Of a stretch of DNA of 64,000 nt, positions 19,201 through 22,200 are shown in pieces. The translations under genes were made by a program, and so were the position numbers. Each line of letters starts with the position of its first letter. The first letter of the stretch is position 1. The notes under the pieces are model-generated. The model did not search any database and was not told the origin of the DNA. It was given only the letters and a program-made list of their open reading frames with translations. Source of the DNA: a virus; the IMG/VR virus record IMGVR_UViG_3300044710_000107, positions 24,246-88,245 of that record. One strand, written 5' to 3'.

Positions 19201-22200
19201 TCGGATAGTGGACGGCGCCCCGCAGCAATCTCGGTCGGGTCCCGCAATCCCCACGCCCGCGCCGCTTCCAGGCTCTCGCCGACGGTCTGCGGCCCGACCG
19301 GCTCCATGCCGCTGCCTGGCTCGCGGGCGCCGACCTCGCCGCTCTGCACGCGCCCAAACACGTCCTCGGCGGTCTGGAATCCGCGCCGCGCCAGCATGTT
19401 CCGCAACCGCGCCAGGAACGCTCGCAACTTGGCGATCACGCGCGCCATGAGGCTGCCCTTGGGCGGCGCCGGCCCGGTCAGGTGCACGCCGGTCTCGTCG
19501 GCGATCGCTTCCTCAAGCTGTCCGACGTGGCCGAGTTCGGGATACCGCGCGCGGACGCCGTGCTTCTCGATCCAGTTGCCGCGCTCGGCCGCCGCCTCCA
19601 GCGTCGACCACTCCTTCCCGGTGAACACGCCCAGCCGCTTCAGCGCGTGCAGCACCTCGTGGCTCATGTTCTGCGCGAACCGGCCGGGCTCGATCGCCGC
19701 CCGGATCAGCCGGCCGATCGCGTAGCCGAACACCTGCTCGGTGTGGCCGTCGGGAAACTTTACGGTGAAAGCGTGGTGCGCGGCATCGTACGCCTCGATT
19801 TGAATGTGGCCGCCGGTCATGGCGCGCGCCGCGTCGATCACCGCCTGGATGGCGTGCGGGTGCGGGTAGTCGGGATGGCCCGGCATCTGACCGCGCTGGA
19901 ACGCGATGCGCGGATTGTTGGGATCGAACGTGCCGACATTGCCCGTCGCCGACTTCACCTGCACGTCGTCGAACGGTATCCAGACGGTGTGCGTCTGACC
20001 GCCGAGTTTGCCCCCGGTGTCTTTGATTCCATCGTAACCATGCGCCCGAAGCGTCTTCGTCACCCAATCAGGGATGCTCGTCCAGGCGTGGCTAGATTTG
20101 CCGGTCTCGATGTCGTCCAGCAATTCGCGCACCCATTCACGCGGGTCGCGCCGGTTCTTGTCCCAGATGTCGCCGCCGCCGTTGCGCGGGTCGAACCGCT
20201 GCCGGCGGGATGCCTTGTCGAGCGCGGCAACGAGCGGCTGCGGGATGGCCGATGTGTCGAGCGGGCGCTGGATGGAGAGGAAGGTCGGAAACACCGCCGG
20301 CATCGTCGCGTGCGGATCGTGCATCTCGACCGGGACATCGACGCCAGCCGCGCGCAGCACGTCGTGGAACTTTTCCTCATCGTTGTAGAGGACGCCGCCA
20401 TTCAGCCAACCCTCGATGAGAGCCTTGAAGGCGTTGCCGTGGGCGCGCTTTAGTTCGTAATCGTAGTTGCCGATCCCGGTCAGGCGCCCTTCCGGCGCCA
20501 TAACAATGTTTCGATCGTCATCGTACGTGACGCGCGGGGCGAGGCTGGATATCTTCGCCTTCTGCTCTGGCGACATGGACCACCAGGCGCGATCCAGCGG
20601 AACGGCGGCCCGCGCGCCCTTCGGCTTGATGCGGAACCACGTCTCGTAACTGGCATCTTCATTCGTCAGGCTCGTGTCGGACTTGCTGGCCGCGTAACTG
20701 CTGGCGATCGCCGGGTCGTCGGTGAAGAACGCCATCGGGCCAGACGTGGCGCGCGCGCTGCGGAACCGCCCACCGACGCGGTCCGGGCGCTGCGTGCCGT
20801 GATAGACGACCAGCGGGCGGCCGGTTTCGTCCACCACGGCGCTGTTACGGAACCAGCTTTTGAATTCCGGCGTCTCGACCTGAGCGGCTGGGGCGACACC
20901 GCGTCGCCCGAACAGCGGCTTCTGCTCCGGCGGCTTCGGCGCGAACAGACCCTCGTTTGCCGGCTTCTGCTCGCCGGTCGGCAGCAACGCCCCGCGGCCA
21001 ACCTGATCGCGCGCAGCCTGCGCCTGGACGGCAGACGGCTCCATGCCGGGCATGACGGCTTGGCGCTCGTCGGTGCGGAGGGCGGGCTCGGGCGCGGGGC
21101 GCTGGGCTGGCGCGCGCGGGGCTTCGCCGAAGAGAGGCGCGCCGCTCGCCGGAGGAAGCGGCGGCTTGCGCTCGGCTAGTCCTCGAACCCCAACTTCCTG
21201 CGTTCCGCCAGGGGCATGCGGTGGCGCGCCCTCAGATAGCCCCGGACCTCCGCCACCGCGTTCTTGACCTGCGGATCGTCTTGTTCGGGAATCGTCAGCA
21301 GATCGCGCAAGGATTCTCGCAATTCCTTCGTCTGCGCTAGCGGCGTCGGGGTGTCGATGATCCCCCACATTGTAACCTCCACGGACGGCGGCTTGAGCGA
21401 CGCGGTCGGCAATTGCCGCAACATGGGGCGGCCGCGACGCAACTGCAACATAATCGATGAAGCCGGCGCCGTGCAGGGCGCGGTTGATGGTGTCCCACAA
21501 AACCGGCTCAAGTTCTTTATTTGTGGCCTCGCCGCGCCGGATCGCCAGGAGAAGCCCGTCCGAGACGGTTCCCTTCGCCCTGATGCCGCCCAGCATGATC
21601 GCGTTCGCGATGGTGCTCTGCGTGTGGGCTCGGCGATCGACTGCGGGGCCTAGGGACGCGGCATAAAGCGAACCGTCGTGGCCCTGTGCGACGATGCCAC
21701 TGACGCCGGACAACGACAATTGATACACATCATTCGAGGAAAGCGAACTATTGTTCGGGTGGTTGTGTTGGAAGACGAGCGCCCGCGACGGGTCGGTCGC
21801 AATGTCACCGAACCCGGGCGGAAAATCGACGCTCCTTGCGCTCCCCGTGGTATGCGCCATGACGACCGCATCAAGGTGCGGGTCGTACGCCGTCAGATAT
21901 TCATGGCCGGTCTCGCGACCGCGTTCCAGCACGTACCGACCGGCTAGGACCGCGGGTGACACGCCAGGATTTTGCTCCGCGAACCGGGCGAAGTCCTCCG
22001 CTTCGCTGCCGATGACGACGCCTTGTTCGGCCAGCCTGCCGGTCGCCTTCGGCATTGTGGCCGGCGTTTCGAGGAAGAGCCGTCCTTGGCGTTCATCCTT
22101 GATCGGCGGCTGTGCGAGGCGCCCGACGGCCTCAAGCATGCCGCCCTGGACAGCAGCGGCTATTGGTCCTGCTTCGCCTTCCGGCGCAGGTCCGACGCCG

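Follow-up and report, generated by a model that had tools for sequence, protein, structure and literature searches.

In the present paper, we describe a small gene that lies wholly inside a giant one in a stretch of 64,000 nucleotides of viral DNA (positions 24,246 to 88,245 of the IMG/VR record IMGVR_UViG_3300044710_000107), hereafter called the window. The small gene, located at 21176..21370 on the minus strand, is read in frame +1 relative to its host gene and encodes 64 amino acids followed by a TAG stop codon. It starts at the end of a RadC-like JAB (MPN+) module of the giant protein. The evidence presented below leaves little doubt that this open reading frame (ORF) is a real gene maintained by selection, and its product is very probably a specific partner of the JAB module. 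The explanation that we find best overall, and that we favour somewhat, is that a genuine nested gene encodes a dedicated partner, probably an inhibitor, of the RadC-like JAB module that precedes it.

Layout and codon usage of the nested gene

The initial annotation of this DNA had called attention to a +1 ORF starting with GGAGG-TTACA-ATG inside the intact giant ORF, right after the JAB domain, and both the ORF and its position are confirmed here. The Shine-Dalgarno (SD) sequence GGAGG is found at 21376..21380 on the minus strand, 5 nucleotides (TTACA) before the nested ATG, and in the host frame it is part of an R-G-G sequence at the end of the JAB module. The ATG falls at host residue 1406, where the last helix-like segment of the module ends; the module spans host residues 1194-1408 (21363..22007, minus strand) as judged from an alignment with 34 related modules. 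Concerning the extent of the ORF, the 64-codon gene counted from the ATG stands, but the open frame begins earlier: the +1 frame is free of stops for 157 codons from stop to stop (21649..21179), with 93 open codons upstream of the ATG. The nested product has an I-D-x-P-x-P motif from residue 5, near its N-terminus, followed by a helix-prone remainder, and it is calculated to have an isoelectric point (pI) of 6.6 and a net charge of 0.

As the initial annotation also stated, the codons of the nested frame end mostly in G or C. The guanine-plus-cytosine (GC) content at codon positions 1/2/3 was found to be 0.66/0.42/0.83, which can be compared to 0.72/0.53/0.81 for the whole giant ORF. The switch of the host frame to rare codons and linker-like sequence, noted there as well, is also seen. 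Over the overlap, where the same bases encode a rare-codon linker (residues 1406-1471), the GC content at third codon positions (GC3) of the host frame drops to 0.38-0.40, compared to a mean of 0.81. If a codon is called rare when it accounts for less than 15% of the synonymous use elsewhere in the giant ORF, the overlap contains 32 rare host codons out of 66 (CGA five times, AGA twice, CTA twice, GGA four times, and others), to be compared with a mean of 9.6 per 66-codon segment. This is the maximum of the giant ORF, as only 11 of 3,055 such segments reach the value of 32, all of them at the nested site. The nested frame itself has 10 rare codons out of 64, which is an ordinary level.

We have also considered a second dip in the GC3 of the host frame (0.47-0.6, at ca 22150-22290), which is accompanied by an 85-codon +1 ORF at 22160-22417 on the minus strand. 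This ORF has no conserved counterpart in the relatives and the host frame is conserved at this place, so the dip is probably an ordinary linker rich in Gly, Ala and Pro.

The small-protein family and its linkage to the JAB module

Using the JAB module alone as bait, we obtained 38 viral loci from IMG/VR with 33 distinct JAB sequences. A small ORF was found directly 3' of the JAB and on the same strand in all 38 of them, in 37 cases by a first profile and in one case (L059) by a second. In 25 loci it is a separate gene, located behind ORFs of 355-906 codons (stop to stop), and the Pfam family Phage_Mu_F scores above its cut-off in the JAB ORFs of all six separate loci that were tested. At the junctions of these 25 pairs, there is a 4-nucleotide ATGA/GTGA overlap in nine cases, a 1-nucleotide overlap in four, an overlap of 8-38 nucleotides in five and a gap in seven; by their sequences, the junctions appear to be of the translationally coupled kind.

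The other 13 loci, of which 12 are distinct in sequence, have a small gene that is nested, invariably in frame +1, in polyvalent proteins, that is, single polypeptides with several unrelated effector domains. The host ORF continues to the end of the fetched locus in nine of these, and in four (three distinct sequences) the small gene is located in a C-terminal tail. The location of the JAB within the giant proteins differs, and the small gene is always at its 3' edge. A junction motif that separates modules of the host protein (20930..21130 on the minus strand, limits approximate) lies 3' of the nested gene in the window, but ahead of the JAB in L013 (at ca 3148), L014 (ca 3166) and L016 (ca 2169). 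Since the side of this motif varies while the partner stays 3' of the JAB, the JAB and the small gene move as one unit. The claim that the two travel as one cassette is upheld by all 38 loci. As a separate observation, the giant ORF of L065 (IMGVR_UViG_3300033120_000377) contains, at 4461-4637, a second and degenerate nested +1 copy, which has a GTG start and lacks the I-D-P-P sequence.

The same arrangement was found in two cultured phages when a MuF-type JAB was used as query; searches of cultured phages with the window's JAB and with the cassette DNA of L021 gave no match. In Sinorhizobium phage PBC5, the JAB is followed by a nested +1 copy (E-value 1.3e-10) inside a coding sequence labelled 'DarB-like antirestriction' in RefSeq, and in Ruegeria phage 45A6 a corresponding copy (E 6.3e-11) follows the JAB inside a hypothetical protein of 3,913 amino acids. 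The nested copy is unannotated in both records, which agrees with the earlier statement that gene callers miss it; a gene located wholly inside another one cannot be reported by the standard programs. We note that the GenBank record of PBC5 (AF448724.1, our L085) has unlikely ORFs, orf24-orf30 ('unknown'), placed on both strands over the giant ORF, and that the nested gene at 2048-2287 of L085 is missed.

The pair also occurs in other settings. A Brevundimonas prophage has a MuF-JAB protein with a small partner, two bacterial genomes have a free-standing JAB of ca 200 amino acids with a partner, and in a bacterial genome the small partner is found behind a PBECR3-JAB protein. The distances among JAB modules and among partners co-vary, with a correlation r of 0.59 that was equalled in none of 2,000 permutations.

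We now consider the small protein as a family. A profile of five nested peptides, run against 1.84 billion proteins, matched 156 cluster representatives at E ≤ 1e-3, and 115 of the 149 members retrieved have at most 95 amino acids. Two database proteins of 64 amino acids, P0003 and P0009, are 94% and 58% identical to the window peptide, respectively. The family signature is I-D-P-P-S-P-F-A-P followed by two helix-prone segments, and the N-terminal, proline-rich linear motif is the most conserved part of the protein. In three distant phage contigs (JAB 24-33% identical), a +1 ORF right after the JAB has the same signature, namely Met, I-D-x-P-x-P-F, and hydrophobic and charged positions that are conserved as far as V-R-x-x-L.

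The small protein matched no family of Pfam, NCBIfam or PHROG above noise, the sub-threshold noise consisting of ABATE (0.0037), Mu Gp36 (0.043) and XisF (4.9e-5, with 22 bits compared to a cut-off of 375). A profile search of the PDB with the small family returned designed helical proteins and chance matches only, and the window peptide is absent from the Protein Atlas, where the homologue P0012 gave no usable match and has no model. Judged by its sequence, the nested ORF is a member of an unnamed and uncatalogued family of small proteins.

It is important to point out that the similarity between the nested and the separate genes is not circular, since it holds for a profile built from separate genes only. 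This profile, made from 20 separate-gene members, matches the window ORF with an E-value of 3.4e-6, which is the sole match in the six frames of the window. When the 64-kb window and 11 related loci were searched together (2,450 six-frame segments), it matched all nested copies and nothing else. With the A3 family profile, the E-value of the window ORF is 7.9e-13.

In alignment A6, the separate partners have pI values of 4.1-5.2 (17 of 17) and the nested ones values of 5.3-11.2 (10 of 10), the difference arising largely from basic C-terminal tails. The acidic charge of the MuF-linked members is not shared by the window peptide, and we have taken this as a subfamily difference and not as a defining trait. 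The starts of L034 and L043 were taken to be ATGs upstream of a TTG, and alignment A6 uses the shorter versions of these two.

The comparison of nested and separate copies also bears on the two reading frames. Among 20 separate small genes, stops are absent from the host-like frame in only two and from the other frame in none, whereas the host frame is open in all nested copies; in two further separate genes, the sole stop in the host-like frame is that of the JAB gene itself. Because this frame is so rarely open in the separate genes, its openness over the nested copies is attributed to selection rather than to accident, which means that both frames are maintained.

A further indication is obtained from L034 and L043. 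Counted by host codon position (1/2/3), these two differ at 24/19/90 sites in the JAB part and at 13/7/9 sites within the nested gene (Fisher p 5.6e-4). The difference per site decreases from 0.20 in the former to 0.14 in the latter, and within the overlap the third position of the nested frame is the commonest class of substitution. Two other comparisons say less. For the first four nested genes, the position-specific divergence is 0.40/0.41/0.51, which is saturated and weakly informative, and in L013, L014 and L016 the host-frame identity (0.39-0.45) is as high as the nested-frame identity, as expected from the fact that both frames share the same bases. On the basis of the codon-usage switch and the substitution pattern of L034 and L043, we infer that the nested frame is the main constraint and that the host reading is a tolerant linker.

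Initiation signals are also conserved. A strict SD core is present at -16..-4 in 8 of 12 nested starts, compared to a background of 10% (binomial p 3.7e-6), and the start codon lies 0-14 residues ahead of the I-D-x-P motif. The search for the +1 ORF and its SD behind homologous JAB domains, proposed in the initial annotation as a check, thus finds the ORF in frame +1 at 13 of 13 nested loci and the SD at two thirds of the starts. The direction implied by the term 'overprinted', used there for the small protein, has however to be reversed. In view of the wide occurrence and the diversity of the separate two-gene form, we conclude that the small gene is the older reading frame and the host linker the younger overprint, which is the reverse of the usual direction of overprinting.

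Role of the small partner

We next discuss the JAB module itself. Its metal-site motif, H-x-H-P-x5-S-x2-D in the host frame, has a computed position of 21729..21773 on the minus strand, in invariant columns of the alignment. Residues E36, H81, H83, P84, S90, D93 and G112 are invariant across the 35 aligned modules, and from the invariant E, H-x-H, S and D the module is predicted to be an active metal enzyme. With these catalytic residues kept, a predicted active enzyme would be available for control by a partner. Relative to the RadC pattern, the H-to-S spacer appears to lack one residue.

The window's module has no match to Pfam RadC at E ≤ 0.1 and does not reach the gathering score of that family (PF04002). 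Weak, sub-threshold RadC matches were found in 9 of the 35 modules, with a best E-value of 0.0027 and, for L029, 16.4 bits compared to a cut-off of 22.1. A sequence-only PDB search with the JAB gave the RadC homologue 2qlc with an E-value of 0.13 across the HNHP motif, and Pfam Toxin-JAB1 is touched by one of the 35 modules (E 0.053). From these searches, the modules appear to constitute a divergent, uncatalogued clade that is weakly RadC-like and has no model of its own. In two earlier studies, nucleic acids, and not ubiquitin-like tails, are put forward as the substrates of the RadC-clade JABs of polyvalent proteins and toxins (PMC5512222, PMC3482391).

In the scheme that we propose, the ancestral unit would be a two-gene cassette, consisting of the JAB enzyme and then a partner of ca 55 amino acids, which can be free-standing or located behind MuF head proteins or behind PBECR3-JAB. 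In the polyvalent proteins, the JAB frame has no stop and runs through the partner gene one base out of register, such that the DNA of the partner gene also serves as a low-complexity linker, rich in rare codons, to the effector module that follows. The partner would be produced on its own, from an internal start at its SD and ATG. As an immunity-like antidote, it may bind the JAB and prevent its activity in the producing cell, and the giant protein, packaged in the virion, would carry the active JAB into the next host.

The immunity-like, inhibitory role, to which the comparative pattern points, we regard as evenly balanced against its negation. It is favoured by the occurrence of orphans, by a copy located next to a truncated JAB, by tandem arrays, by fused doubles, and by the precedent of the MuF toxins and their immunity genes. 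Three genomes (G002, G003 and G005) have the small gene without any JAB of this clade, and in a fourth (G004) an intact small gene directly follows a 60-residue C-terminal remnant of a JAB. In L084 (G006:C101:6500-15500), the region 2192-5771 consists of a PBECR3-JAB ORF, four tandem small-partner genes with a C-terminal fragment of a JAB between them, and then a DUF4265 gene, a layout that resembles a polyimmunity array in a prophage-like region. L019 and L018 (the peat-type contigs Ga0187887_10094475 and Ga0187851_10156022) have three tandem small-partner paralogues with no JAB on the 1.8-kb contig, and the gene beside them is presumably DUF29-like. In P0005, P0008 and P0017, two copies of the small protein are fused in one protein.

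The family thus shows orphans, tandem arrays and fused repeats apart from the toxin, as an immunity protein does. Orphans, homogeneous polyimmunity loci and polyimmunity proteins are given in PMC3482391 as hallmarks of polymorphic-toxin immunity genes, and a small, presumed immunity ORF is reported in PMC5576092 to follow the MuF toxin in 89.4% of 191 cases.

A number of points weigh against the reading of the small gene as a conserved nested gene for a JAB inhibitor. The 38 loci were confirmed against the window's JAB and cover therefore only this JAB clade, and most of the 156 family members come from contigs of ca 1 kb with no readable gene context. The Mantel correlation between JAB and partner is expected from linkage alone, and what precedes the second copy in L065 is a ddrB-ParB domain and not a JAB. 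The substitution test represents one close pair, in which the nested frame has 14 non-synonymous and 10 synonymous codon changes, many of them in the tail. Furthermore, the nested partners are neutral to basic and the separate ones uniformly acidic, and because of this split the nested subfamily may work differently or may be constrained by the overlap. Finally, as the phage has no integrase, 'immunity' in the sense of a lysogen is not applicable.

The alternative that survives best is that the small protein is a real partner of the JAB with another function than inhibition, namely a chaperone for folding or packaging, an adaptor that targets the capsid, or an activating or specificity subunit. 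We consider this to be a serious rival, although we think it unlikely on balance. Strict synteny and co-divergence fit any obligate partner, and many JAB/MPN+ enzymes require partner subunits. The conserved N-terminal proline-rich motif could be a docking peptide, the nested versions are not acidic, and in a phage that looks virulent and lacks an integrase the need for self-protection is less obvious. What speaks for inhibition over these functions is the set of orphans without a JAB of the clade, the copy by the truncated JAB, the four-copy arrays and the fused doubles. A chaperone or a subunit is useless without its client, while immunity genes typically show such orphans, as described in PMC3482391.

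Another option considered is that translation of the nested ORF has ceased in the polyvalent proteins and that a still recognisable fossil of the two-gene cassette is all that is left, which we judge improbable. That decay does happen can be seen from the second copy in L065, which has lost the N-terminal motif and the ATG, and the charge of the nested copies has drifted from acidic to basic. However, at least 15 nested lineages (the window, 12 distinct IMG/VR sequences, PBC5 and 45A6) keep the ORF, the start, the family signature and mostly the SD, in spite of the fact that their JAB modules share only 21-32% identity with that of the window. The nested subfamily also has conserved positions of its own, and the codon usage in the window follows the nested frame, while an untranslated relic should drift to the usage of the host frame.

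The possibility that the +1 frame is reached by programmed ribosomal frameshifting, giving a truncated N-terminal product that ends in the small peptide, is even less credible. Phages often use ribosomal frameshifting, and the +1 frame of the window is open for the 93 codons upstream of the ATG. This upstream stretch is however not conserved, being 4 codons in L013 and absent in L016, while the ATG and the SD are conserved in the nested cases. Moreover, the separate small genes are in frame +2, +1 or 0 relative to the JAB, or follow after a gap, with a start of their own, which argues that the small protein is a free-standing polypeptide.

A chance open frame over a linker with relaxed codon usage can practically be dismissed: off-frame ORFs are long and abundant in a genome of ca 67% GC, and the second GC3 dip with its unconserved 85-codon ORF is an example of this, but the chance reading is refuted by the homology evidence, that is, the matches of the window-independent profile, the synteny in 38 of 38 loci and the family of 156 clusters, together with the rare-codon maximum at the site. 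The fossil, frameshift-fusion and chance readings are all poorly supported.

Returning to the nested gene for an inhibitory partner, a more far-reaching version can be formulated, which we regard as rather doubtful. Giant polyvalent proteins would here generally fuse effector-antidote cassettes with the antidote gene kept, the enzyme's frame using it out of register as a linker and the antidote still being made internally. The small protein would be the first dedicated protein inhibitor of RadC-like JAB enzymes and would thereby offer a way to find out what RadC does, and the free copies and arrays in bacteria would constitute a pre-emptive defence against JAB effectors that incoming phages inject. 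If it were true that the bacterial orphans and arrays neutralise injected JAB effectors, this would be a simple form of anti-phage defence.

Known systems, host protein and phage genome

The closest known counterparts are the MuF polymorphic toxins (Jamet et al. 2017, PMC5576092). As described in that study, these have a virion-packaged carrier that ends in an enzyme module and is followed by a small ORF of less than 150 amino acids, directly after the toxin module; here, a 64-amino-acid ORF begins at the end of the JAB. Among the related loci, 25 have this layout, with a MuF carrier where tested (6 of 6) and with a small gene that often overlaps the stop of the carrier. The carrier in the window is different in that it is a polyvalent protein of 3,121 amino acids with no MuF domain, and that the small gene is wholly inside it and out of frame. 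The main text of PMC5576092 has no occurrence of JAB or RadC, its lists of C-terminal domains being located in the supplements, outside this count.

Polyvalent proteins (Iyer et al. 2017, PMC5512222) are alike in combining ParB-like, RadC/JAB and ADP-ribosyltransferase (ART) domains, in being encoded among virion genes and in being presumably injected with the DNA, and the RadC clade of JAB is listed there as one of their domains. In contrast to the present case, the main text describes neither a partner gene of RadC nor any gene overlap (there are 0 occurrences of 'overlapping'), and the nucleic-acid-processing role of RadC is given with no inhibitor.

Tox-JAB-1/Imm65 and Tox-JAB-2/Imm-NTF2-2 (Zhang et al. 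2012, PMC3482391) likewise consist of a divergent JAB toxin module and a cognate immunity gene, and that study describes immunity genes in tandem arrays and as fused repeats, of which L084, L019 and P0005 are the counterparts here. The differences are that Imm65 is a lipoprotein and Imm-NTF2-2 has the NTF2 fold, while the present partner has ca 55 amino acids and a proline-rich N-terminus, and that the delivery described there is by RHS, T6SS and similar systems and not by a phage virion.

In the literature searched, supplements excepted, we found no partner gene of RadC/JAB in MuF or polyvalent proteins, and no gene nested in a polyvalent protein. As to nested genes in general, Rz1 of phage lambda is embedded in Rz in frame +1 with its own start, and the two products are subunits of one complex. 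The likeness to the present case is that a small gene lies wholly within a larger one, in frame +1 and with its own start, and that the products are functionally linked. The case differs in that here the embedded gene is the older one and the outer frame a linker originating from a cassette fusion, and in that the products would be an enzyme and its presumed inhibitor.

Effectors that are delivered by the virion and have a small cognate gene are thus known already, as are JAB toxins and their immunity proteins, polyvalent proteins and embedded +1 genes. New is the complete nesting of the partner, always in frame +1, in the giant polyvalent proteins of no fewer than 15 lineages, two cultured phages among them. 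New are also the small gene as the older frame, the orphan and array evidence, and the JAB clade and its partner as uncatalogued families. The initial annotation presented the nested gene as a candidate for an undescribed system, which in a categorical sense it is not; what is new is the effector/partner family and its nested arrangement, and both belong to the known scheme of polymorphic toxins and polyvalent proteins.

These results add a conserved protein-coding gene that is absent from the GenBank and RefSeq annotation of PBC5 and 45A6. They also suggest a route by which polyvalent proteins may grow, in which a cassette of effector and partner is swallowed whole and the DNA of the partner is reused out of frame as a linker. 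For a large, uncatalogued clade of RadC-like JAB enzymes, an obligate small partner is defined. What RadC does biochemically has been a matter of dispute for decades, and a specific binder or inhibitor would make its activity testable. The finding should be of interest to phage biologists and to researchers working on overlapping genes, and PBC5 with S. meliloti provides a tractable experimental system.

We now turn our attention to the host gene. According to the ORF listing and the translation, the giant ORF runs from 25586 to 16221 on the minus strand (16221..25586) and has 3,121 codons. It contains an ART-PolyVal domain (Pfam PF18760, 51.8 bits compared to a cut-off of 31.2), the start of which, at 20667..20831 on the minus strand (residues 1586-1640), marks the next effector module, in addition to a ParB-like region, the RadC-like JAB and further domains. 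Its PHROG matches are giant virion proteins and ParB, and its neighbours are tail fibre, virion structural and tape-measure-like genes. On account of the ART-PolyVal domain, the ParB-like region, the JAB metal motif and the virion-gene neighbours, several unrelated effector domains being combined in one polypeptide, the product is a phage polyvalent virion protein in the sense of Iyer et al. 2017 (PMC5512222). Its packaging in the virion and delivery with the DNA are presumed from the virion-gene neighbours.

The junction motif mentioned above has the sequence L-F-G ... P-E-P-x-I-R-x-D-x-R-Q ... M-P-G-M-E-P-S ... Q-A-Q-A-A-R-D ... G-L-F in the host frame and is conserved in L013, L014 and L016; in the window, M-P-G-M-E is at 21039-21053. 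The motif possibly marks a boundary between modules, or else a site of processing.

The source phage genome is complete, with 88,245 bp and direct terminal repeats, and in its DNA of ca 67% GC off-frame ORFs are long and frequent. No tyrosine integrase was found in the phage genome, and the phage appears to be virulent. A Phage_Mu_F (MuF) domain was found neither in the giant protein (P0002) nor anywhere else in the phage genome. A scan of 20800-22100 for promoters and terminators found none, which is a weak test for such a phage. In a search of sequencing runs, the stretch was present in only one sample, a soil metagenome that is its probable source, and a second run had short, dissimilar pieces; no variant positions were gained, and no RNA run was listed with the stretch.

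Finally, two other genes in the virion region can be mentioned. A GIY-YIG-type homing endonuclease ORF is located at 27984-28919 on the minus strand (phrog_314, E 1.5e-26), close upstream of the giant gene and surrounded by virion genes, and a glycosyltransferase is encoded within the structural region at 32413-33609 on the minus strand (phrog_3408, E 5.9e-139).

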